A stretch of 28,061 bases of DNA from a virus (taxonomy: Duplodnaviria; Heunggongvirae; Uroviricota; Caudoviricetes). Location: the IMG/VR virus record IMGVR_UViG_3300036956_000151. One strand, written 5' to 3'. Shown one piece after another: positions 1,902 to 27,828 of this stretch. The stretch's first letter is position 1. The number at the start of each line of letters is the position of its first letter. The position numbers and the translations under genes were made by a program. The notes below the pieces were generated by a model that was given only the letters and a program-made list of their open reading frames with translations, did no database searches and was not told where the DNA came from.

Positions 1902-1978
1902 GGGCCGTTAGCTCAGTTGGTTAGAGCAGGCGACTCATAATCGCTTGGTCGCTGGTTCAAGTCCAGCACGGCCCACCA
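1902..1978 (+). tRNA. tRNA with CAU anticodon; anticodon and T arms match what I recall of enterobacterial ileX (tRNA-Ile2, lysidine type) better than elongator tRNA-Met; 77 nt including encoded CCA
   Basis: Acceptor stem GGGCCGT/ACGGCCC, D-arm TAGCTCAGTTGGTTAGAGCA, anticodon loop CTCATAA, T-arm GGTTCAAGTCC, 3' CCA; sits directly after rpoD as ileX does in E. coli. Confidence 0.9.
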
Positions 1979-2028
1979 TACGTATCAAGCACTTAGGCCA
2001 GCCTCACGAGGGCTGGCCTTTTGCTTTC
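1933..2028 (+). repeat. att direct repeat copy 1 (tRNA 3' half from anticodon loop plus terminator); part of the intact tRNA
   Basis: Near-identical to 12407-12502 and 27555-27660. Confidence 0.85.
1996..2027 (+). terminator. Rho-independent terminator of the tRNA (GGCCAGCC-N7-GGCTGGCC followed by TTTTGCTTT); repeated with the att copies at 12470-12501 and 27620-27651
   Basis: 8-bp GC stem plus T-run seen directly. Confidence 0.65.
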
Positions 2029-2036
2029 TGGGCCAA

Positions 2037-2055
2037 TGTAAGCACCTTGTAAGCG
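2037..2055 (+). promoter_or_regulatory. Two TGTAAGC heptamers (2037-2043, 2049-2055) at left end of element A; candidate integrase arm-type sites
   Basis: Same heptamer occurs three times at 12257-12287 at the opposite end, just upstream of the element A integrase start. Confidence 0.4.
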
Positions 2056-3371: not shown

Positions 3372-3580
3372 GGTGGCTGCTCCTTGTGTGCGGTGATGTT
3401 CTCCGCAACCCCTTCCTACGGGGGCGGCGGAACCGTGCGGGGCTAGGAATACCGGACACAAGGAACCGGCCAGCCTCGCGGCTGCCCCACACGGCCCGCC
3501 ATTGAACAGGCGTCGCCATGCTTACCGACGTAAAAAAACCGCTTGCGCGGCCCTGTCGGCCTTGTGATTTCCGGGTTCCT
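3372..3580 (-). promoter_or_regulatory. Conserved ~200-bp structured non-coding leader (module 1), homologous to 15029-15235 in element B; possible promoter/5'-UTR or small RNA
   Basis: Alignable by eye with element B (shared GTTCTCCGC, GAACCGTGC, CCATGCTTACCGACGTAAAAAAACCGC-type blocks); conserved stems with compensatory changes; ends in SD plus ATG. Confidence 0.4.
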
Positions 3581-4796: not shown

Positions 4797-4907
4797 AACG
4801 ACGGGGCCAAGGGGAGGCCTCGTAGTCGGCTGGGTTGGCGATGAGCGGGGGAGAAGCAGGCTTGGTTTCCAGGGTCGGTTTCCAGCAGAACAGACCTTTT
4901 TCGCCTC

Positions 4908-4977
4908 CTGAAACCTGAACATCTTTCAGCATTCGCCGTCATGCCGTGCGCTTTTCTGTGCGCGTTGCCGGCTGCAT
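4908..4977. repeat. ~65-bp direct repeat (TGAACATCTTTCAGCAT...GTGCGCTTT...TTGCCGG), second copy 5148-5217; iteron-like
   Basis: Two copies ~240 bp apart read directly. Confidence 0.55.
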
Positions 4978-5260
4978 TACATCGAGGACCGGGCCAGCCA
5001 TGCGGTCGATGGCCACCTTGTGTTGTTCTTCAGGATTCAGGATTCAGCCGGGCCGGCACAGTGCTAGCACCGGGCTTGCCCGGTACTGGGGCTGCTTCGC
5101 ACTGCGGCCTGACGTGAAGACGCCCTCCCGCCCGGTCGTTTTGCTTCGTGAAAAGTGAACATCTTTCAGCATCGCATCGGGATGCTGTGCGCTTTCGCGT
5201 GCGGATTGCCGGAATCGGGGCAGGGCCAGTGCCGTCCATCTTCTGGACGCCATCGGTAGC

Positions 5261-5499: not shown

Positions 5500-5771
5500 C
5501 TCTCTACGAGCGCGTTTGATGCGCCTGGCTACCTGCGCTTCCCTCAGACACGCAGTGCGTTCTTCGGTCTCCAGACGGGCGAGTGCACAGGCCATCCGGG
5601 CCAGGGTCAGAACTTACTGTTTCAGGCTGGCGGATTCTCGTTCCAGGGCGGCGAGTCGTTCAGCCTCCCCAAAACTCCCCAAAACCCCCCATTTATGGGT
5701 GCCGTCCTCCCCAAAACTCCCCACACCACCTTTAAGAGGTGGGGGGAAATGGGGACCATGTGGGGAATGGG

Positions 5772-8194: not shown

Positions 8195-8520
8195 GCCGCA
8201 CCAGCCTTTCGGGCCTTCGCTTCGACGAGCGCCATTTCATTGGCAGCGAACTCCTGACCTGCGCTGCCGGCGGCCTCAATGACTTCGACCGGCAGGCGGT
8301 ACTGCGCGAAGGCGCACGACTCGCCGAAGCGGTTGGGACGTTGGATAGTCTCCTTCGCGACGCCCCAGCCCCATTTGGTCAGGAGGAAAACGACGGCGGC
8401 AGTCCGGTAGATGCCCAGCGTCCTCCAGCTTGCAATGGGGCCAATGGCATTGCCAGCCAGAAACGCAGCGAGCAGGCGGGCGCTCTGGGTGCCGTGCTTG
8501 GGGTAGGTGCCGGCCATCAT
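8191..8520 (-). CDS. Hypothetical protein, 109 aa
   Basis: Start overlaps upstream stop (TAATG); stop overlaps downstream start (ATGA). Confidence 0.6.
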   Translation of the reverse strand: MMAGTYPKHGTQSARLLAAFLAGNAIGPIASWRTLGIYRTAAVVFLLTKWGWGVAKETIQRPNRFGESCAFAQYRLPVEVIEAAGSAGQEFAANEMALVEAKARKAGAA

Positions 8521-8750
8521 TACGCCACCTCGCCAGAGGTAAGGGCCTCAACGGCCGCGGCGTCCCACAGCAAGAAGCGGTTGCGGCACTTGACCGGGCG
8601 CAGGCCGAAGTAATGCCCGTCACGGCACAGGGCGGCGCGCAAGGTCTGCGGGCGCACCTTCAGGACGGCGGCGGCCTCAATGGTGGAGTAGTTGCGCAGG
8701 ATGGACGCGATGTCCGTGCGCTTGGTGGTGGGTGTGTTTTGGTGTTGCAT
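8520..8750 (-). CDS. Small HTH DNA-binding protein, 76 aa, AlpA/excisionase-like; first gene of the replication operon
   Basis: STIEAAAVLKVRPQTLRAALCRDGHYFGLRPVKCRNRFLLWDAAAVEAL; AGGAGA SD; same motif pattern as the element B gene at 23916-24098. Confidence 0.7.
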   Translation of the reverse strand: MQHQNTPTTKRTDIASILRNYSTIEAAAVLKVRPQTLRAALCRDGHYFGLRPVKCRNRFLLWDAAAVEALTSGEVA

Positions 8751-8862: not shown

Positions 8863-9456
8863 TTACCCGCCATTTCCAAGATGCTGATTTTTAAGGGTCT
8901 TTAGGCTGTTTAGAAATTTGCGCTCTTCGCTACCCCCCTCGGTTCTAAGTCCGTGCTCGTCAGTGAATACAACATACCCCGCGTCGCGCTGCACGACTCC
9001 ACGGCTCTCCAGTTTGTCCAGCATATCCGATGCAGTCAGGAGTCTGTTCTTGTCCCATATGGCCTTTGCCTCTAGTCGCCAGCGGATAGTAGCGGGCCGT
9101 CCTCCTTTGCGTACGACACGCTTCTGCGACGCGGACCTAGCCTGCTGTGCTCTTGCTGCTGCGGCGTAATGCTGCATCATCGGAGACAAGGGACCGACAG
9201 CAAGAATGGCAGACCTTGCAGCCGCAACGGACGCGGCGTGCGCAGCATCAACCATTGGCTGCATCCACTGACGCGTTTTTTCAGGCCACGTCTCCCTTAG
9301 AAGTCCAAGAGGCGGCTCCTGCAAAGGTAGGGTCAGCGAGCTTCTCAGCACCGACTCGAACACGGCGAGCTGGATTTCCTCGGCCCCGCGCCTGAAGTCA
9401 GCCGCGAATGATGCGGACTGACCTCCCATCCCCTGTTTTTTCAAATGCTTTGTCAT
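8863..9456 (-). CDS. Hypothetical protein, 197 aa; contains a GGRPA motif shared with the syntenic 252-aa protein of element B
   Basis: AAGGAG SD 6 nt upstream; directly preceded by conserved hairpin module 2. Confidence 0.6.
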   Translation of the reverse strand: MTKHLKKQGMGGQSASFAADFRRGAEEIQLAVFESVLRSSLTLPLQEPPLGLLRETWPEKTRQWMQPMVDAAHAASVAAARSAILAVGPLSPMMQHYAAAARAQQARSASQKRVVRKGGRPATIRWRLEAKAIWDKNRLLTASDMLDKLESRGVVQRDAGYVVFTDEHGLRTEGGSEERKFLNSLKTLKNQHLGNGG

Positions 9457-9477
9457 CGCGCTCCTTCAAGCGCCTTC

Positions 9478-9552
9478 AAAAGAGGCACCGCGCCAGGCGG
9501 GTGAAGGTTCCCGCTTTTCGGTTGGCCGACCTAGGCGCGGTGGTGGTACTCG
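9478..9552. terminator. Conserved nested-hairpin element (module 2): outer stem CACCGCGCC/GGCGCGGTG enclosing inner hairpin GCGGG-N8-CCCGC plus T4; terminator-like in both orientations; homologous copy at 25028-25104
   Basis: Near-identical flanks in both elements; inner stem differs by compensatory changes (GCGGG/CCCGC versus CGGGG/CCCCG). Confidence 0.45.
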
Positions 9553-9553
9553 G

Positions 9554-9934
9554 TCAGGCGGCAATCGCCTCATTCAAGGGACACGGCTGAATCAGCACGT
9601 CAGCCGGGAGGCCGAGGCCAGAAGACAGGCGGCGAATCATCGTCACCGACAGCGGGCGCGTCCGGTTCATGATGTCGGCCACCCTCCCCCGCGGGCCGAT
9701 GTAAGGCTCCAAGTCCTTGCGCGTCAATCCGCGGGACTCCATGACGTACTCAAGGAAGGCCACCGGGTCCGGGGCTTTAATCAGGAAGTGCGCCTTTTCG
9801 TAGGCTTCCACCAGCATGGCGAGCACCTCCAGGCGGTCGGCCTCGGGGCTTCCATCAGGGGCATCCCACAGGCGTTCGATATCGGCCAGGGCTTCGTTGT
9901 GCTCGGCTTCGGTTCGGATGGGCTTCAGTTCCAT
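9554..9934 (-). CDS. higA: HigA-family antitoxin (HTH), 126 aa
   Basis: Immediately downstream of the HigB-type toxin gene; AGGAG SD; C-terminal HTH-like segment LTRKDLEPYIGPRGRVADIMNRTRPLSVTMIRRL. Confidence 0.8.
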   Translation of the reverse strand: MELKPIRTEAEHNEALADIERLWDAPDGSPEADRLEVLAMLVEAYEKAHFLIKAPDPVAFLEYVMESRGLTRKDLEPYIGPRGRVADIMNRTRPLSVTMIRRLSSGLGLPADVLIQPCPLNEAIAA

Positions 9935-9942
9935 GGCGGCTC

Positions 9943-10236
9943 CTAGATGGTTTCAGCGTCTATCCGGTCGTACTCGGCATGAGTGCCCACGAAACGGATG
10001 AACATCATGGTGGAGGTGTAACGCACAGCCGCCACCAACCGGTAGTCATTGCCCTTGATGTTGAACACCACGCGGTTGTTCGCCAGAAAGCTGGCGTTCC
10101 GGTGCGCGGCCTTGATGTCGGCCGGGGTTTGCCAGGTGGCCCGGCTTGCCTCGGCGTACCAACCACGCAAAGGGGTTTCGGCTTGCGGATGCTTCTCCCA
10201 AAACTCGCGCAGTGCTCGCAGTGCAATGATGTGCAT
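9943..10236 (-). CDS. higB: HigB-family type II toxin (mRNA interferase), 97 aa
   Basis: MHIIALRALREFWEKHP...NNRVVFNIKGNDYRLVAAVRY...IRFVGTHAEYDRIDAETI; toxin-first order. Confidence 0.85.
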   Translation of the reverse strand: MHIIALRALREFWEKHPQAETPLRGWYAEASRATWQTPADIKAAHRNASFLANNRVVFNIKGNDYRLVAAVRYTSTMMFIRFVGTHAEYDRIDAETI

Positions 10237-10319: not shown

Positions 10320-10604
10320 TCAGGCGGCGATGCGTGCCACGGGTGCCCGGTCCTTGGCGCGCTCGCCGGCTGTCCAGAGGTCGCGCTGCGTTTGCAGGCG
10401 CAGCCAGTAGCCGGGCGAGGTGCCTAGCGCCTCGTGCAGGCGCAGGTCCATATCGGCGGTGACGGCGGCATGCCCGTGCAGGATGCGGGACAACATCACC
10501 CGGCTGATGCCCACATGGGCGGCAAAGGCGGTCACGCTCATATCGAGGTCTTCCAGCCAGCCGGCCAGGATTTCGCCAGGGGTTGAAGGGTCGTGCATGT
10601 CCAT
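10320..10604 (-). CDS. HigA-like antitoxin (XRE-type HTH), 94 aa
   Basis: PGEILAGWLEDLDMSVTAFAAHVGISRVMLSRILHG...ITADMDLRLHEALGTSPGYWLRLQTQRDL; follows the killer-protein toxin gene. Confidence 0.8.
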   Translation of the reverse strand: MDMHDPSTPGEILAGWLEDLDMSVTAFAAHVGISRVMLSRILHGHAAVTADMDLRLHEALGTSPGYWLRLQTQRDLWTAGERAKDRAPVARIAA

Positions 10605-10615
10605 GATGTCGGGCC

Positions 10616-10894
10616 TCAGTGGTAATCCAGATAGTCCAGCAGTTCCACGTTTCCGCCATCGAAGCGGAACACAAGCCGCCAGTTGGCTTGCACCGTCATG
10701 GCGAGGAAGCCGGCGCGGTCGCCGGACAGGCCATGCAGGCGCCAGGACGGGCGGGCGAGGTCTTCCGGGCCGGCGGCGGCGTTCAGGGCGGTCAGCATTT
10801 CCCGTAGGCGCTTGGCGTGAATCGGCTGAATGCCGGCCTGCTTGCCGGTCAGGAAGAAGGCTTCAAGCCCCTTGTGTCGGAACGATAGAATCAT
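10616..10894 (-). CDS. RelE/ParE-superfamily toxin of the HigB killer-protein type, 92 aa
   Basis: MILSFRHKGLEAFFLTGKQAGIQPIHAKRLREMLTALNAA...LLDYLDYH. Confidence 0.85.
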   Translation of the reverse strand: MILSFRHKGLEAFFLTGKQAGIQPIHAKRLREMLTALNAAAGPEDLARPSWRLHGLSGDRAGFLAMTVQANWRLVFRFDGGNVELLDYLDYH

Positions 10895-10898
10895 AGTC

Positions 10899-10917
10899 TG
10901 TAAATCATAGCTTTACA
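10899..10917. promoter_or_regulatory. Inverted repeat TGTAAA-N7-TTTACA upstream of the toxin gene; likely TA operator/promoter
   Basis: Between toxin start (10894) and integrase stop (10926). Confidence 0.4.
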
Positions 10918-10925
10918 ATGTCCGC

Positions 10926-12242
10926 TCAGGTCACAACCCGCAACCCAGGCGCCTGCCCCTCGTCCGGCTGCTCGATGCCGGCCTGCTCCAGAATCCAGCC
11001 CTCTATCTTGATGTGCCACAGGGTCAGCAGGTCGAGCGGCCGGCGGCGATAGTGCTTCTCGGCCAAGGCGCTGGGCTTGTGCCCCTGAATCTGCGCCACC
11101 ACGCCGACGGGCACCTCGCACCACTCCGCCAGGGTGCCGAAGGAGCGGCGCAGGTCATGCAGCGAGAATGGCGGCAGGCCGGCGGCTTCCATCGCTTTGC
11201 GCAGGGGTTTGAGGACTTCCACGATACGGCCATCCGCGGCCGCAGGGCTTGAGAACACCCACTCATTCCGGCGCGGCAGAGAGGCCAGCAGCGAGGCGAC
11301 GAAGGGCGTCAGCGGGATGATGCGGCCCTCTTCCTCCACCTTGTCGGCGATGTGCAGGGACTTCCATTGAAAATCCACGTCAGCCCATTTCAGGCCGGCC
11401 AGTTCCTCGCGCCTCGCGCCGGTCAGGAGCAAGGTTTGCAGGTAGGCGGCGTGCACCGGGTTCCCCAGCTTGCGGACATGCTCGAACCACAGCGGCAATT
11501 GTTCGCGGCGCAGGCTGTCGCCTTTGGTCTTCACCGCCTGCACTTGGTCCCGCACTTCGCTGGTGCGGCAGGCATCCGCACGAACGAGGCCGGCATACTC
11601 CGGGCGCTCGGCACACCAGCCAAGGAAGGCGCGCACGAGGCGGAATATCTTTGCGGCCTGCGTCGCCCCGCGGGCGTTGTTGTCCTGCATCCATGCCGTG
11701 ATGCGTGCCGGGGTCAGGTCCAATAGGCGCACATGCAGCAGCGGATGTACCATGCCGGGCAAAGTGTATTCCCCCTGCCCAGCCTTGCGCCCTCGCGTGA
11801 TGCGCTCGCCGCCGGGCTTTATGGCCTGTGCATGGTCGCGCTGTGAGGACTCGCCCCACTTGTGCGAGCGGGCCAGAACATAGGCGGCCCATGCCTCGCC
11901 AACGGTCACTTCCTGCCGTGCGGACTCTTCCCGCTTGGCCTCGATGGCGGCGCGCTTGTCGGCCTTCTCTTGGCGCGGGTCGATGCCTTGGTCAATCAGG
12001 GTTTGCAGGCGGCGGGCTTCGGCGCGGGCTGCGTCAATGCCCCACGCGCGCACGTCGCCAATCGTGATGCGAAGAGCCTTGCCGTTCAGGCGGCTTTGGA
12101 AGATGAACCCGCGCGCCTCGCTGCCGGGTGTGGCACGCACTGCGAGGCCGGGCGCTTCCGTGTCCCACAGGAAGGCTTGAGCGGTGCCGGTCGGGCATTC
12201 AAATTCGCGGATGCGGCCGGCGGTCAGCTTGTTGCGTGCCAT
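10926..12242 (-). CDS. int: Tyrosine recombinase, P4-type integrase (element A); ATG at 12242 preferred over the ORF-track start at 12248
   Basis: ~438 aa; catalytic-domain blocks LTGARREELAGL, HDLRRSFGT, HKPSALAEKHYRRR; GGAGAA SD; adjacent to att copy 2. Confidence 0.9.
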   Translation of the reverse strand: MARNKLTAGRIREFECPTGTAQAFLWDTEAPGLAVRATPGSEARGFIFQSRLNGKALRITIGDVRAWGIDAARAEARRLQTLIDQGIDPRQEKADKRAAIEAKREESARQEVTVGEAWAAYVLARSHKWGESSQRDHAQAIKPGGERITRGRKAGQGEYTLPGMVHPLLHVRLLDLTPARITAWMQDNNARGATQAAKIFRLVRAFLGWCAERPEYAGLVRADACRTSEVRDQVQAVKTKGDSLRREQLPLWFEHVRKLGNPVHAAYLQTLLLTGARREELAGLKWADVDFQWKSLHIADKVEEEGRIIPLTPFVASLLASLPRRNEWVFSSPAAADGRIVEVLKPLRKAMEAAGLPPFSLHDLRRSFGTLAEWCEVPVGVVAQIQGHKPSALAEKHYRRRPLDLLTLWHIKIEGWILEQAGIEQPDEGQAPGLRVVT

Positions 12243-12256
12243 GTTCAAGTTCTCCG

Positions 12257-12406: not shown

Positions 12407-12502
12407 ACTCATAATCGCTTGGTCGCTGGTTCAAGTCCAGCACGGCCCACCATACGTATCAAGCACTTAGGCCAGCCTCACGAGGGCTGGCCTTTTGCTT
12501 TC
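12407..12502 (+). repeat. att direct repeat copy 2 (junction between element A and element B); tRNA 3' half only, no 5' half
   Basis: ACTCATAATCGCTTGGTCGCTGGTTCAAGTCCAGCACGGCCCACCA plus terminator; preceded by unrelated AT-rich sequence. Confidence 0.85.
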
Positions 12503-12510
12503 CGGCGCCG

Positions 12511-12529
12511 TGTAGCCACCATGTAGCCA
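12511..12529. promoter_or_regulatory. Two TGTAGCCA octamers at left end of element B; candidate arm-type sites
   Basis: Same motif at 27389-27425 (three copies, one inverted) upstream of the element B integrase. Confidence 0.4.
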
Positions 12530-15028: not shown

Positions 15029-15235
15029 GGTGATGTTCCTTATTTGCGGTCTTGTTCTCCGCTACCCAGCCGCCAAGCTGGGTGAGCAGAACCGTGCAGG
15101 TTGGCGGACCGGAATAAGGACCGGCAGGGTTTCCCCTCCCGCACGGCCCCGCCCAATGAGGCGATACCATGCTACGGACGTAAAAAAACCGCGCAGTGCG
15201 GCGGTTGTCCGCCTTATTTACCCGGGCCGCCAAGC
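15029..15235 (-). promoter_or_regulatory. Conserved structured leader (module 1), element B copy
   Basis: Homologous to 3372-3580; includes hairpin CCGC-N5-GCGG followed by A7 (terminator-like on the minus strand). Confidence 0.4.
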
Positions 15236-15442
15236 CCGTATCACCGTTGTTTGCAGCGACGAAAATATGATGCGCCTGGGCGCCGCTGGTGGTCAAGCAC
15301 TTATTTTGCATGTGTGGCGCCGGAGGGGAGGTGGACACATGAATCATGGGCGCCCGAGGACGGACACGGTAGGTGTCATTTCGGCCGGCGACACCCGCCT
15401 AAAATGGGTGGCCGCGGTAAGTCGAGCACGTCAGGCCGCCGA

Positions 15443-15466
15443 GGTGTCCTCAGTTTTGAGGACACC
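15443..15466. promoter_or_regulatory. Perfect palindrome GGTGTCCTC-AGTTTT-GAGGACACC; operator-like
   Basis: Homologous to the site upstream of the element A Rha-like ORF, but no Rha-like ORF follows here. Confidence 0.4.
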
Positions 15467-24245: not shown

Positions 24246-25001
24246 TCAAAGGAGCGCGGTTAGCTCGCTCCAACGGTCATCCCATTCGGGGAAATTCCGG
24301 CTAATGACGATGCGAGCGGCGCTCTTGGTGAGAAAGCCCTTGCTCACCATACAAAAAGCGAACTGAGCGGGGTCCCATAGTGCCGGCCGGCCTCCCCCTC
24401 GTCCTGGCGTGTATTCCCTGGCGGTCTTCATCCACCCCGGGCAATCAGAAATTGTTCGGGACCAATTCTCTGGCCTGGTGCTCTTGGGGTGTGGAAAAGC
24501 TTCCGACAGCTGTTTGGATGTTACGAGGCTGTGAGGGGGTGGCGATGCAGCGGGGATGCTTGGATTTAGCTCCTCAGGAGCGCTCCCCTGTCGGTCATTC
24601 GTACCAAGATCACTTCTCCGAACGAAAAGCCCCGTTCGCGTCACGACTGGCATTGGAATTACCTTCCCGTCGCCGCCCTTCTCCCAGCACGGCGCCCAAT
24701 ACGCCCCGTCCTTGTCTGGACGGGTGAAGGCGGGAACGTCGGTTCCGACTTCCCCATTCAGTGCACTCGCCAAGTCACGGCGGCTGACGGGAATGTAGAT
24801 GAAGTGCTTGCGCTGCGGCTCCTCGCTGAGCTTGACGATGGTTCCGTCAGGATTCGCACGGAGACGCACAGCCTGCCTATCCTCCCCGAGGAGAAAGTAG
24901 ACGCGCAACTGGCCTTCCAGGCCTGCTGCGATCAGGGAATCTTCTGAACAACAAAAGGTCTTGGCGGCTTCCGATAGTCGGATGTATTCGGGTTCAAACA
25001 T
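24246..25001 (-). CDS. Hypothetical protein, 251 aa; syntenic with the element A 197-aa protein and shares its GGRPA motif; internal ATG chosen because the upstream DNA is conserved module 2
   Basis: GGAG SD; module 2 immediately upstream. Confidence 0.6.
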   Translation of the reverse strand: MFEPEYIRLSEAAKTFCCSEDSLIAAGLEGQLRVYFLLGEDRQAVRLRANPDGTIVKLSEEPQRKHFIYIPVSRRDLASALNGEVGTDVPAFTRPDKDGAYWAPCWEKGGDGKVIPMPVVTRTGLFVRRSDLGTNDRQGSAPEELNPSIPAASPPPHSLVTSKQLSEAFPHPKSTRPENWSRTISDCPGWMKTAREYTPGRGGGRPALWDPAQFAFCMVSKGFLTKSAARIVISRNFPEWDDRWSELTALL

Positions 25002-25027
25002 TCTCGCGCTCCATCTGCGCACCCATC

Positions 25028-25104
25028 GAAAAAGGCACCGCGCCAGCGGGGCGATGGAATCCCCGTTTTCGGTTGGCCGACCTAGGCGCGGTGGTGGTGC
25101 TCGG
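25028..25104. terminator. Conserved nested-hairpin element (module 2), element B copy
   Basis: Outer stem CACCGCGCC/GGCGCGGTG, inner CGGGG-N9-CCCCG plus T4. Confidence 0.45.
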
Positions 25105-25359
25105 TCAGCTACGGTTCCGACGTGCAGCCTCGATGCCGGCCCGCAGTTCTTCGTCCGTGGCCGGGCGGTCGTCCTCGTCCTTACCGTCCCATACAAAGTG
25201 CTTTTCCGGAGAGATATTGCGGACCGCCGTAGCCAGTTCCTTACGCTGCTGTTCAGCCAGGGCAGAGAGCTCGTTGGCCTTCCGAAATGCCGGGTCGCCC
25301 TTGCTGGCTTCCTCGGCATAAGCGCGAGGGTCGAAGGAGCCGGGTTTGTAGTCGCTCAT
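25105..25359 (-). CDS. Hypothetical protein, 84 aa, charged; third gene coupled to the HigBA pair
   Basis: Strong SD GGAGAGGAG; begins about 20 nt after the antitoxin stop. Confidence 0.6.
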   Translation of the reverse strand: MSDYKPGSFDPRAYAEEASKGDPAFRKANELSALAEQQRKELATAVRNISPEKHFVWDGKDEDDRPATDEELRAGIEAARRNRS

Positions 25360-25381: not shown

Positions 25382-25690
25382 TCAGGCAGCTTCCGCGTGC
25401 ATTGGCCGAATCTCTCGTGCCACCTTCTCGCCTATTGCCGCCTCGGCCTGCTTCAGGTCAAAGGCTGTTTGCAGATTCATCCAGAATTGCGGCGTGGTGT
25501 CGAAGTAGCGGGCGAGGCGCAGGGCAGTGTCAGGCGTCACCGCCCGGCGCTCGCGCACGATGTCGTTAATGCGCGGGGCAGGAACGTGCAAATCCATTGC
25601 CAGGGCGTTGGCGCTGAGTCCAAGCGGCAGCAGGTATTCTTCCCGCAGAATCTCGCCCGGATGAATGGGGCGCATATTGTTCGTAGCCAT
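25382..25690 (-). CDS. higA: HigA-family antitoxin (XRE-type HTH), 102 aa
   Basis: IHPGEILREEYLLPLGLSANALAMDLHVPAPRINDIVRERRAVTPDTALRLARYF; GAGGGA SD. Confidence 0.8.
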   Translation of the reverse strand: MATNNMRPIHPGEILREEYLLPLGLSANALAMDLHVPAPRINDIVRERRAVTPDTALRLARYFDTTPQFWMNLQTAFDLKQAEAAIGEKVAREIRPMHAEAA

Positions 25691-25701
25691 GTTCAAATCC
25701 C

Positions 25702-25983
25702 TCAGTGGTAATCCACGATTTCGACGCCCTCCGGCCCCGTAGCCGTCCAAACGAAGCACACGCGCCACTGGTCATTGATGCGGATGCTGTGCTGTCCGGC
25801 TCGGTTCCCACTGAGCGCTTCGAGACGATTGCCCGGGGGCGAGCGCAAGTCCTTCAGCTCTTCGGCAGCATCAAGCATTTGCAGTTTTCGCTCTGCGACA
25901 GCTTCAATGTTCCGGAATCGCTTCGGGTGCAGCCCTTCGTAAAGGGCTTCGGTGTCTTCGCACCGAAATGAACGGATCGTCAT
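25702..25983 (-). CDS. higB: HigB killer-protein toxin (RelE/ParE superfamily), 93 aa
   Basis: MTIRSFRCEDTEALYEG...PPGNRLEALSGNRAGQHSIRINDQWRVCFVWTATGPEGVEIVDYH. Confidence 0.85.
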   Translation of the reverse strand: MTIRSFRCEDTEALYEGLHPKRFRNIEAVAERKLQMLDAAEELKDLRSPPGNRLEALSGNRAGQHSIRINDQWRVCFVWTATGPEGVEIVDYH

Positions 25984-26007
25984 GGTCTCAGAATAGAACG
26001 CGTTACG

Positions 26008-26026
26008 TTTAACGTCAATCGTTAAA
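26008..26026. promoter_or_regulatory. Inverted repeat TTTAACG-N5-CGTTAAA upstream of the toxin gene; likely TA operator
   Basis: Between toxin start (25983) and integrase stop (26041); same placement as in element A. Confidence 0.35.
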
Positions 26027-26040
26027 GTTGTAAATGGAGG

Positions 26041-27369
26041 TTACTTGACGGCCCTGAGGACTGTCGCGGCCCCCTCTGTCGGCTGCTCGATGCCGGCCTG
26101 TTCCAGAATCCACGCCTCAATCTTGATGTGCCACATACGTAGCAGGTCGAGGGGCCGGCGGCGGTAGTGCTTTTCAGCCAGCGCAGACGGCTTGTGCCCT
26201 TGAATCTGCGCCACCACGCCCACCGGGCATTCCACCCATTCGGACAGGGTGCCGAAGGAGCGGCGCAAGTCATGCAGTGAGAACGGCGGCAGGCCGGCGG
26301 CTTCCATCGCGTTCTTGTGGGGCTTGAGCGGCTCCTGGAGGCGGCCAGATGCCGCGGAGGGGCTGGAGAACACCCACTCATTGCGGCGCGGCAGGGCTGC
26401 CAGCAAGGCCGCAACATAGGGCGTCAGCGGGATGATGCGCTGCCCTTCCACTTTGTCCCGGATGGTCAGGGACTTCCATTGAAAATCGATGCAATCCCAC
26501 GTCAGGCCGGCGAGCTCTTCGCGGCGGGCTCCGGTAAGCAGCAGGGTTTGCAGGTAGGCCACGTGCACCGGATTGCCCAGCTTCCTGACGTGCTCGAACC
26601 ACAGCGGCAACTGCTCCCGCTGCAGGCTGTCGCCCTTGGCTCTGGCCGCCTGCACCTGGTCCCGCACTTCGCTGGTACGGCAGGCGTCGGCCCGGACAAG
26701 GCCGGCATACTCGGGCCGCTCGGCACACCAGCCAAGGAAGGCCCGCACCAAGCGGAAGTTCTTCGCTGCTTCGGTGGCCCCCCGGACGTTGTTCGCCTGC
26801 ATCCAGGCCGTTATGCACGCCGGCGTCAGGTCGATCAGGCAGACCGCCAGCAGCGGATGAACCATGCCCTGCAATGAGAACTCGCCCTGCCCCTTCTTGC
26901 GGCCTCGCGTGATGCGCTCGCCACCGGGCTTGATGGCCTTCTCGTGGTCCCGCTTGGACGATTCGCCCCACTTGTGGGAGCGGGCGGCAACGTAGGCGGC
27001 CCACGCCTCGCCAACGGTCACGGACTGGCGGCGCTGCTCTTCCTGCCCTGCCACCACTGCGGCCTTCTTGGCCTCCACTGCGGCCAGCTTGTCGGCTTTC
27101 TCCTGCCGGGGATCGGTGCCCTGGTCGACAACGGTTTGCAACCGGCGAGCTTCGGCGCGGGCATCGTCCAGGTTCCACGCCCGCACGTCGCCGATGGTTA
27201 CGCGGATTGTTTGCCGGTTTAGCTTGGCCTCGAAGATGAACGACTTCGCGCCCGTGGTCGCACGCACAGCGAGGCGCGGCGCGTCGGTGTCCCAGAGGAA
27301 GGATTGCTTGGCGTCGGCGGGGCAGGAGAAGCGGCGGATTCGGTCGGGCGTGAGGCGTTCGCGTTGCAT
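26041..27369 (-). CDS. int: Tyrosine recombinase, P4-type integrase (element B), 442 aa
   Basis: Collinear with the element A integrase with long identical stretches (HDLRRSFGT, VGVVAQIQGHKPSALAEKHYRRRPLDLL); GGAG SD; adjacent to att copy 3. Confidence 0.9.
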   Translation of the reverse strand: MQRERLTPDRIRRFSCPADAKQSFLWDTDAPRLAVRATTGAKSFIFEAKLNRQTIRVTIGDVRAWNLDDARAEARRLQTVVDQGTDPRQEKADKLAAVEAKKAAVVAGQEEQRRQSVTVGEAWAAYVAARSHKWGESSKRDHEKAIKPGGERITRGRKKGQGEFSLQGMVHPLLAVCLIDLTPACITAWMQANNVRGATEAAKNFRLVRAFLGWCAERPEYAGLVRADACRTSEVRDQVQAARAKGDSLQREQLPLWFEHVRKLGNPVHVAYLQTLLLTGARREELAGLTWDCIDFQWKSLTIRDKVEGQRIIPLTPYVAALLAALPRRNEWVFSSPSAASGRLQEPLKPHKNAMEAAGLPPFSLHDLRRSFGTLSEWVECPVGVVAQIQGHKPSALAEKHYRRRPLDLLRMWHIKIEAWILEQAGIEQPTEGAATVLRAVK

Positions 27370-27554: not shown

Positions 27555-27660
27555 CGACTCATAATCGCTTGGTCGCTGGTTCAAGTCCAGCACGGCCCAC
27601 CAATAGCATCAAGCACTTAGGCCAGCCTCACGAGGGCTGGCCTTTTGCTTTCCGGCGCCG
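27555..27660 (+). repeat. att direct repeat copy 3 (right end of element B); tRNA 3' half plus terminator, a few substitutions after CCA
   Basis: Same 46-nt tRNA 3' segment and terminator; shares the tail CGGCGCCG with copy 2. Confidence 0.85.
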
Positions 27661-27828
27661 GCATCCGGGAATGACAATAAAATTCTGCAGCGCAACCTGA
27701 ACCATCCAGAACGGCTGCAAAAAGTATGATGCAGCGCCGCAATCCATCACCTATAAAGGAGCATGTACCCGGGTTCGGCGCACTTCGCCCGGCCCCATTC
27801 TCACGACGCTGACATCCCGGAGAATTTC

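Follow-up and report, generated by a model that had tools for sequence, protein, structure and literature searches.

The int-alpA RNA motif was published by Weinberg et al. in 2017 (NAR 45:10811, PMC5737381), in a paper whose main text carries no discussion of it. As represented by the Rfam family RF02996, the motif is a three-way junction with characteristic junction nucleotides, placed, in the same orientation, behind tyrosine integrase genes and ahead of an alpA-type regulator in prophage- and satellite-like islands, and Rfam types it as an sRNA gene and not as a cis-regulator. We found no function for int-alpA RNA in the literature searched, where later papers give it as a table entry or as part of the wording of a gene order. 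In related integrase-alpA islands, the position immediately behind the integrase is reported to hold variable and often defensive cargo (PMC12595487).

Several other systems share features with this motif. Among them are engineered 5' insulators (RiboJ and the bicistronic designs) and Shine-Dalgarno (SD)-sequestering pseudoknot switches (preQ1-II and SAM-II, and likewise RNA thermometers), in the latter of which a pyrimidine stretch is able to pair with the SD and the pairings are mutually exclusive. The C4 RNA of P1 and P7 and the CI RNA of P4 (RF01695) are structured RNAs that come from the same transcript as their targets, with a loop complementary to two sites, one of which lies at a ribosome-binding site. 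In engineered insulators, a folded RNA followed by an SD-presenting hairpin renders expression less sensitive to the adjoining sequence.

Here we analyse two copies of int-alpA RNA in a single stretch of viral DNA of 28,061 nt (IMG/VR record IMGVR_UViG_3300036956_000151; Caudoviricetes), called the window below, together with their homologues in viral and bacterial contigs. The comparative data supply int-alpA with a testable anatomy (a three-way junction, a covarying pseudoknot between a loop and a decoy box, and an SD hairpin abutting the start codon) and with a setting, that of a fixed leader ahead of a hypervariable cargo slot beside the integrase of PICI/P4-like satellites. We propose that the element is a portable sense-strand leader of about 105 nt that controls the translation of the first cargo gene in cis by a loop/box switch, and that it is not primarily a terminator; we give this explanation as a whole, family membership included, a probability of roughly 55%. 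As far as could be checked, the extended anatomy and the role as a cargo leader were not previously described: no earlier account was found in the main text of Weinberg et al. (2017) or in the later papers searched.

Two tandem islands at one tRNA gene

Two satellite-like islands of about 10.5 and 15.1 kb lie in tandem in the window, integrated at one tRNA-Met gene (1902-1978, plus strand). They are delimited by a 119-nt att direct repeat, the first copy of which lies at 1933-2051 (plus strand) and the others at 12407-12525 and 27557-27675 (93% and 82% identity); the repeats include the 3' half of the tRNA and its terminator hairpin. The islands are phage-satellite or P4/PICI-like, and each presents, in order, an integrase, HigBA toxin-antitoxin (TA) cargo, the int-alpA RNA, an open reading frame (ORF) without a family, and replication genes. 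In both, the integrase is upstream of the RNA and on the same strand with TA cargo in between, which differs from the placement known for the family, although nothing in it excludes membership.

In island 1 (read on the minus strand), Pfam identifies a tyrosine integrase with an Arm-DNA-bind_3 domain (10926-12248), a HigB-like toxin (10616-10894) and an HTH_3 antitoxin (10320-10604), with a promoter-like site at 10918-10890. A second pair follows, consisting of a HigB toxin (9943-10236; PF09907, E = 1.5e-31) and an HTH antitoxin (9554-9934; Pfam, E = 6.2e-5) that lies directly upstream of the first RNA copy, its stop codon 11 nt ahead of the outer stem. Downstream of the RNA is a cargo ORF of 197 aa (8863-9456) with no match in Pfam, PHROGs or PADLOC, followed by a 76-aa ORF (8520-8750) with a weak resemblance to HTH_17 (AlpA/excisionase-like; E = 8.4e-4, below the Pfam cut-off), by small ORFs, and by a PriCT_2/AAA_25 primase-helicase.

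Island 2, also on the minus strand, has a tyrosine integrase (26041-27369) whose gene shares about 80% DNA identity with that of island 1, a promoter-like site (26018-25990), a HigB-like toxin (25702-25983), an HTH_3 antitoxin (within 25382-25768), an 84-aa ORF without a family match (25105-25359), and then the second RNA copy and a cargo ORF of 251 aa, also without a family match (24246-25001). After it come a replication initiator, a DnaB-like helicase and a PmgG-like head-morphogenesis protein; no AlpA-type regulator was recognised in this island. The initial annotation had both RNA copies following the TA operon, which is true of copy 1, adjoining the HigB (PF09907)/HTH pair, but not of copy 2, where the 84-aa ORF intervenes. 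Islands of E. coli with the same motif run from the integrase through the motif, a variable ORF, AlpA, a KilAC antirepressor, an Icd-like protein and a DUF927 primase to capsid and protease genes, an order that is the layout of capsid-forming PICIs.

The interval between integrase and RNA forms a second cargo slot, occupied in the window by TA cassettes with their own promoter-like sites (10890-10918 and 25990-26018), and in many homologues by an ORF of about 90-130 aa. An upstream ORF was called at 119 homologous loci; in 61 of these it is of integrase size (at least 300 aa) and in 58 it is smaller. Its stop codon is mostly 6-12 nt ahead of the RNA, and in the window the scan found no promoter between the upstream ORF and the RNA, the nearest ones preceding the integrase and the first TA gene. 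Because the stop codon is so close and no promoter intervenes, the RNA would be made as part of the upstream mRNA. A promoter inside or just before the element was likewise considered and rejected, since the scan gives none and the 6-12 nt to the upstream stop leave no room.

Each island also contains a C4-family antisense RNA (RF01695), at 3420-3506 and 15078-15160 on the minus strand (67.5 and 48.1 bits). In the one from island 1, UUCCUUGUGU, the second loop, is complementary to a GGAAGG immediately 3' of the C4 RNA. At three other loci (L046, L111 and L155), isrK and C4 accompany the int-alpA RNA on its own strand, at a distance of 0.5-2 kb.

Identity and structure of the two copies

An Rfam scan of the whole window, for which E-values were computed and in which the curated gathering threshold of RF02996 is 35.8 bits, assigns copy 1 to RF02996 "int-alpA RNA" at 9473-9541 (minus strand; 71.9 bits, E = 2.2e-13) and copy 2 to the same family at 25023-25092 (minus strand; 63.0 bits, E = 4.5e-11). 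Both span model positions 1-71 of 71 in cmscan, so that score and full model length alike place them in the family; the junction strands C-UA-G, C-GAAAA-G and C-CU-GG are present in each, and homologous loci rescanned with Rfam were above threshold in 18 of 18 cases (48-72 bits). The two copies are almost certainly members of the int-alpA family, that is, new instances of an already catalogued orphan RNA motif and not a new kind of terminator. They have a core of 33 nt in common, where 0 matches are expected by chance, and besides the integrase genes and att repeats the element is the only sequence common to the two halves of the window (a palindrome is reported separately below).

Two observations of the initial annotation are borne out at this level: the outer 9-bp stem is the same in both copies (CACCGCGCC/GGCGCGGUG), and the inner hairpin reads GCGGG...CCCGC in copy 1 and CGGGG...CCCCG in copy 2, a compensatory change amounting to two pair swaps. 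The fold, described there as a nested hairpin, is instead a three-way junction in which the outer stem (P0) encloses two hairpins (P1 and P2), and RNAfold recovers it (copy 1, z = -3.1). The reported extents (9478-9552 and 25028-25104) do mark the element, but the conserved unit is longer, beginning at the stop codon of the upstream ORF and ending at the start codon of the following one (9454-9556 and 24999-25107). It thereby extends about 35 nt beyond the 71-nt Rfam model, to a covarying SD hairpin (P3) and the start codon itself.

In copy 1 (minus strand; core at 9473-9541 from cmscan, with coordinates mapped from the sequence), P0 is formed by 9534-9542 paired with 9486-9494 and encloses P1 (9520-9531), the GAAAA junction (9515-9519) and P2, with its stem at 9510-9514/9497-9501 and its loop AACCUUCA at 9502-9509. 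A G-poor linker leads to a first purine box, UGAAGG (box 1; 9473-9478). P3, as read from the sequence, occupies 9458-9473 with the stem GCGCU(U)/(G)AGCGC, and presents a second UGAAGG (box 2; 9463-9468) and the SD GGAG (9461-9464) ahead of the AUG of the 197-aa ORF (9454-9456); the same start was chosen in an independent gene call on a metagenome contig (L164).

Copy 2 (minus strand; core at 25023-25092 from cmscan) is built alike: P0 at 25085-25093 paired with 25036-25044, P1 at 25071-25082, the GAAAA junction at 25066-25070, the P2 stem at 25061-25065/25047-25051 with the loop AUUCCAUCG at 25052-25060, and box 1 CGAUGG at 25023-25028. Its P3, again read from the sequence, lies in the region 24999-25021 (stem 25005-25021), with box 2 GAUGG at 25011-25015, the SD GGAG at 25009-25012, and the AUG of the 251-aa ORF at 24999-25001. 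The computed pairing energy of the copy 2 loop is -8.9 kcal/mol with box 1 and -9.3 kcal/mol with box 2.

The CGAUGG-type lineage to which copy 2 belongs (window 24993-25014, minus strand; also L012 and L070) has an AUG inside box 2. In copy 2 this AUG, which has box 1 at SD distance, starts a 6-codon ORF (MERENV) that runs out of frame across the real start; in L012 and L070 the AUG is in frame with the cargo ORF.

Covariation and the functional strand

A scan with the pattern CTAG..CGAAAA..GGG..CCC..CTGG found the element in 41 viral contigs, many of them satellite-sized (14-19 kb), and in at least 120 genome contigs. Among the matches listed, the genome carriers are mostly Beta- and Gammaproteobacteria, and carriers include Zoogloea, Thauera, Azonexus, Accumulibacter, Thiobacillus, Burkholderiales, Rhodanobacter, Dyella and Enterobacterales; the named relative nearest to copy 1, again among the matches listed, is Zoogloea oleivorans Buc (L062). 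Invariance of CUAG, CGAAAA, GGG/CCC and CUGG in this set follows by construction, these positions being fixed by the search pattern; in the Rfam consensus, the junction nucleotides are the most conserved part.

Over 128 distinct homologues, 94.7% of the cells in the three helices hold a pair, as against 77.8% with shuffled columns and 35-45% with slid partners, and 317 cells show changes on both sides of a pair. Selection on RNA structure, which the initial annotation had proposed from the two copies, is thus upheld on a much larger set. Dozens of G-U pairs occur and are frequent in all stems, and since a G-U pair becomes an A-C mismatch on the other strand, the comparison identifies the sense-strand RNA as the selected molecule, and not duplex DNA or a plus-strand transcript. 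The functional strand is accordingly minus, in the same sense as the flanking genes.

A loop, two purine boxes and an SD hairpin

The loop of P2 is pyrimidine-rich and resembles an anti-Shine-Dalgarno sequence (for example, AAACCCUA and ACACCCUUG in addition to the two window loops), and in nearly every homologue it is complementary to two downstream purine boxes. Tail columns of our MAFFT alignment (A1) are out of register between lineages, and pairings of the tail were therefore assessed by anchored-column and permutation tests, which treat sequences as independent and ignore relatedness. The anchors in these tests were the C-run of the loop and the G-run of the box, so that the variable part was not selected for complementarity.

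Box 1 lies at a nearly fixed distance from P0, across a G-poor linker (6% G) with a narrow length range of 7-9 nt (about 7.5), and the 3' end of the RF02996 model coincides with it. In 88 of 132 homologues, every nucleotide of the variable 3' part of the loop has a Watson-Crick partner in the stretch preceding the G-run of box 1, compared with 23.4 +/- 4.1 for permuted loops. Twelve matched sequence types occur (UUCA/UGAA, AUCG/CGAU, UA/UA, UUG/CAA and UUC/GAA among them), and pairing per position is 98/92/79/80% where 92/62/40/68% is expected. On this comparative evidence, the loop and box 1 form a covarying pseudoknot.

Box 2 lies 10-14 nt beyond box 1 and 4-9 nt ahead of the start codon, with the SD inside it. 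Its covariation with the loop is much weaker than that of box 1 (18 of 132, where 9.2 +/- 2.6 are expected), but 4-5 pairs are conserved, the lengths of C-run and G-run tend to match, and cognate loops fit box 2 with 4.80 bp as compared with 4.05 +/- 0.07 bp for permuted loops. Most of the loop:box 2 complementarity could simply reflect a pyrimidine loop set against any purine SD. Mean duplex energies are -7.8 kcal/mol for loop and box 1, -7.35 kcal/mol for loop and box 2, -6.6 kcal/mol for the 16S anti-SD and box 2, and -1.2 kcal/mol for coding-sequence controls.

Box 2 sits in the loop of P3, a third covarying hairpin. Of 132 homologues, 122 have a P3 of 4 bp or more (105 distinct versions) and 81 have one of 5 bp or more, as against 27 in shuffles. 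The longest P3 of roughly one member in four confines the G-run to a 4-nt loop, with which the P2 loop could pair only after partial melting. The 5' strand of P3 begins no more than 2 nt from box 1 in most sequences, and therefore the pseudoknot helix and P3 can stack; the start codon follows 0-4 nt past P3 in most sequences.

A CC dinucleotide (in ACCC, ACCU or UCC) is present in the first 6 nt past P0 in 92 of 132 sequences, and could serve as a local partner for the box 1 G-run and hence as a further alternative structure. Two known functions were also considered for the structured region and rejected: CsrA/RsmA sites, as the boxes are mostly GGG and not GGA, and a hammerhead or other ribozyme, as Rfam gives no match and the junction is without a CUGAUGA core.

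These features bear directly on the reading of the element as an intrinsic terminator or attenuator, in which the outer stem and a U-run would end the integrase and TA transcripts and insulate the downstream module. Like a Rho-independent terminator, each window copy has a GC-rich closing stem (9 bp) followed by a U-rich stretch (CCUCUUUU and CCUUUUUC); the scan flags a small 5-bp sub-hairpin with a tail in copy 2, within the 3' strand of the outer stem; and a stop downstream of TA cassettes with their own promoter-like sites would make sense. Unlike such terminators, the stem closes a branched interior of 46 nt, and a U-run of at least 4 nt within 12 nt of P0 is found in only 16 of 132 homologues (12%), the U-tract being missing in 88% of members. 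The scan calls the three-way junction in neither copy and makes no call at all in copy 1, the U-stretch belongs to the conserved G-poor linker to the pseudoknot partner, and termination accounts neither for the covarying loop:box 1 pairing nor for the SD hairpin. We therefore regard a terminator as a rather unlikely primary function, with partial termination at the UCUUUU and UUUUU of the two window copies being possible.

Termination in either orientation, as the initial annotation had it, thus does not hold up as a conserved function: the plus-strand "terminator" is the antisense of P2 and the invariant GAAAA, and there the G-U pairs would be A-C mismatches. Its further suggestion, that the element controls the downstream gene as an insulator or attenuator, loses the terminator/insulator part and keeps the rest, control being plausible because the SD of that gene belongs to the conserved, covarying unit.

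A portable leader ahead of variable cargo

The genes behind the element are highly diverse. The 140 downstream proteins fall into 76 BLAST clusters, about 96 of 106 are without a Pfam domain, and PADLOC and PHROGs return almost no matches. Between loci, homology breaks off exactly at the two borders of the element, the stop codon on its upstream side and the start codon on its downstream side. Of 246 locus pairs with leaders at least 88% identical, 20 have a conserved upstream flank but a downstream flank at background identity, as exemplified by L005 and L013 (leader 1.00, upstream 0.97, downstream 0.54; background 0.56 +/- 0.03), and for L108 and L121 the leader is 0.96 identical with both flanks at background. 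The Zoogloea oleivorans locus combines a leader of the island 1 type with a homologue of the 251-aa cargo protein of island 2. To judge from these exchanges, the leader is a portable module ahead of a cargo hotspot. Within the window, homology between the islands restarts precisely with the stop codon that ends the last upstream ORF (CTGACCGAG...; 9554-9557 and 25105-25108).

Sharp breakpoints at the edges would also be expected of an element acting as DNA, namely protein-binding repeats (one inverted and two direct 6-bp repeats), a single-strand origin, or an integron attC site, and the boxes are indeed short direct repeats about one helical turn apart. This we hold to be very improbable. The frequent G-U pairs in all stems are A-C mismatches on the other strand, box 2 keeps SD spacing from the start codon, there is one copy per island with no arrays and no IntI-type integrase, the att sites are 1.3-2.9 kb off, next to the integrase start, and iteron-like repeats lie elsewhere, near the primase gene. 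The attC possibility in particular was rejected on the single copy per island, the P4-type integrase with its arm-binding domain, and the RNA-strand signals.

Many otherwise unrelated cargo proteins appear to have a similar N-terminal stretch, W..L.EA..L..GI.P or the HTH-like Y..L.EAA..L (L014, L082, L098, L118, L139, L073, L061, L100 and others, and the window ORF at 24246-25001). This similarity is unconfirmed, as an HMM built from the largest cluster gained no further members in one iteration.

A proposed cis-acting translation leader

We hypothesize that the mRNA of integrase and cargo includes the leader, which would act in cis on how translation of the next gene is initiated. The three-way junction would present the loop of the second hairpin to purine box 1, with which it would form the pseudoknot, while P3, adjoining box 1, would display the SD (box 2) just ahead of the start codon. 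With the loop on decoy box 1 the SD would be free; with the loop on box 2 it would be blocked. P3 and the compact fold may in addition protect the ribosome-binding site from the influence of an exchanged coding sequence. Co-transcription on the sense strand, one loop facing two boxes of near-equal affinity, the SD as one of these boxes in a hairpin at the start codon, the fixed spacing of box 1 and the independence from the gene behind it together make a cis-acting leader the explanation that fits best. If true, the switch would explain how satellites safely express interchangeable cargo, and would provide a compact natural part for context-independent translational control.

The leader proposed here resembles the SD-sequestering switches in having a pyrimidine stretch able to pair with the SD and mutually exclusive pairings; it differs from them in that its pseudoknot partner is a decoy box and not the SD, and in that its downstream genes are mutually unrelated. 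With engineered insulators it shares, by functional analogy, a folded RNA followed by an SD-presenting hairpin, the same int-alpA leader standing before dozens of unrelated genes, whereas the engineered parts are synthetic and RiboJ relies on cleaving itself, of which the int-alpA element shows no sign.

The invariant junction (CUAG, CGAAAA, CUGG) might itself bind a ligand, or a satellite or phage protein, that sets the choice of the loop, in the manner of a riboswitch or protein-responsive aptamer. Such an aptamer would refine the cis-acting leader and not oppose it. The junction nucleotides are the most conserved in the Rfam consensus, and translational riboswitches likewise combine a three-way junction, a pseudoknot and an SD platform; we nevertheless find the idea improbable, as the downstream genes (76 clusters, about 96 of 106 without Pfam) are functionally incoherent, unlike those behind metabolite riboswitches.

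Alternatively, a junction of about 70 nt may be excised from the integrase transcript, accumulate and act in trans as an immunity-type sRNA whose loop pairs with box 1 or box 2 of freshly transcribed leaders, from its own or a related island, and shuts down the cargo or early operon, as P1 C4 and P4 CI do. One loop with two complementary boxes on one transcript, one of them at a ribosome-binding site, is the C4/CI design; RNAs of the C4 family are present in the same islands, the sRNA typing of RF02996 agrees with such a role, and the window islands are orthogonal, with energies of -7.5 to -9.3 kcal/mol for cognate loop and box and -2.4 to -5.0 kcal/mol for cross pairs. Other observations make this unlikely. 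The RNA has no promoter of its own and usually no terminator of its own, and the fixed short linker to box 1 and the adjacency of box 1 and P3 point to an intramolecular fold; the first target of the int-alpA loop is an intramolecular pseudoknot partner at fixed distance, which sets it apart from C4/CI. The C4 model of Rfam, which matches 3420-3506 and 15078-15160, has no match to the int-alpA element, and the fold is another one. Near-identical specificities occur in three other two-copy genomes or contigs (L062/L090, L126/L145 and L048/L135), and orthogonality of co-resident copies, present in the window but absent from these three, was accordingly rejected as evidence for action in trans.

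Extending the cis-acting leader further, one may picture int-alpA RNA as a programmable gate, in which a lineage-specific "address" in the loop, matching decoy and SD, holds back translation of a changing first cargo gene, which may be toxic or directed against phages, until a signal moves the loop from one box to the other; once excised, the RNA might also confer immunity in trans, and co-resident islands such as those of the window would then differ in specificity, each orthogonal to the other. We offer this doubtful extension as speculation. The signal could be helper-phage infection, induction of the island, or a factor at the invariant junction.

Other features of the islands

Iteron-like direct repeats, namely CCTCCCCAAAACTCCCCA... 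(5664-5688 and 5706-5730) and a 34-nt repeat (4899-4932, 5139-5172 and 2253-2286), follow closely on the 3' end of the island 1 primase-helicase gene; they may mark a replication origin. The near-perfect palindrome mentioned above, GGTGTCCTCAGTTTTGAGGA(T/C)AC, is common to both islands (2585-2618 and 15432-15465). Contig JAJZPR010000010.1 (L048 and L135) carries two identical copies of motif and cargo about 7.4 kb apart, which suggests a tandem duplicate of a whole island, similar to the arrangement in the window but undiverged.
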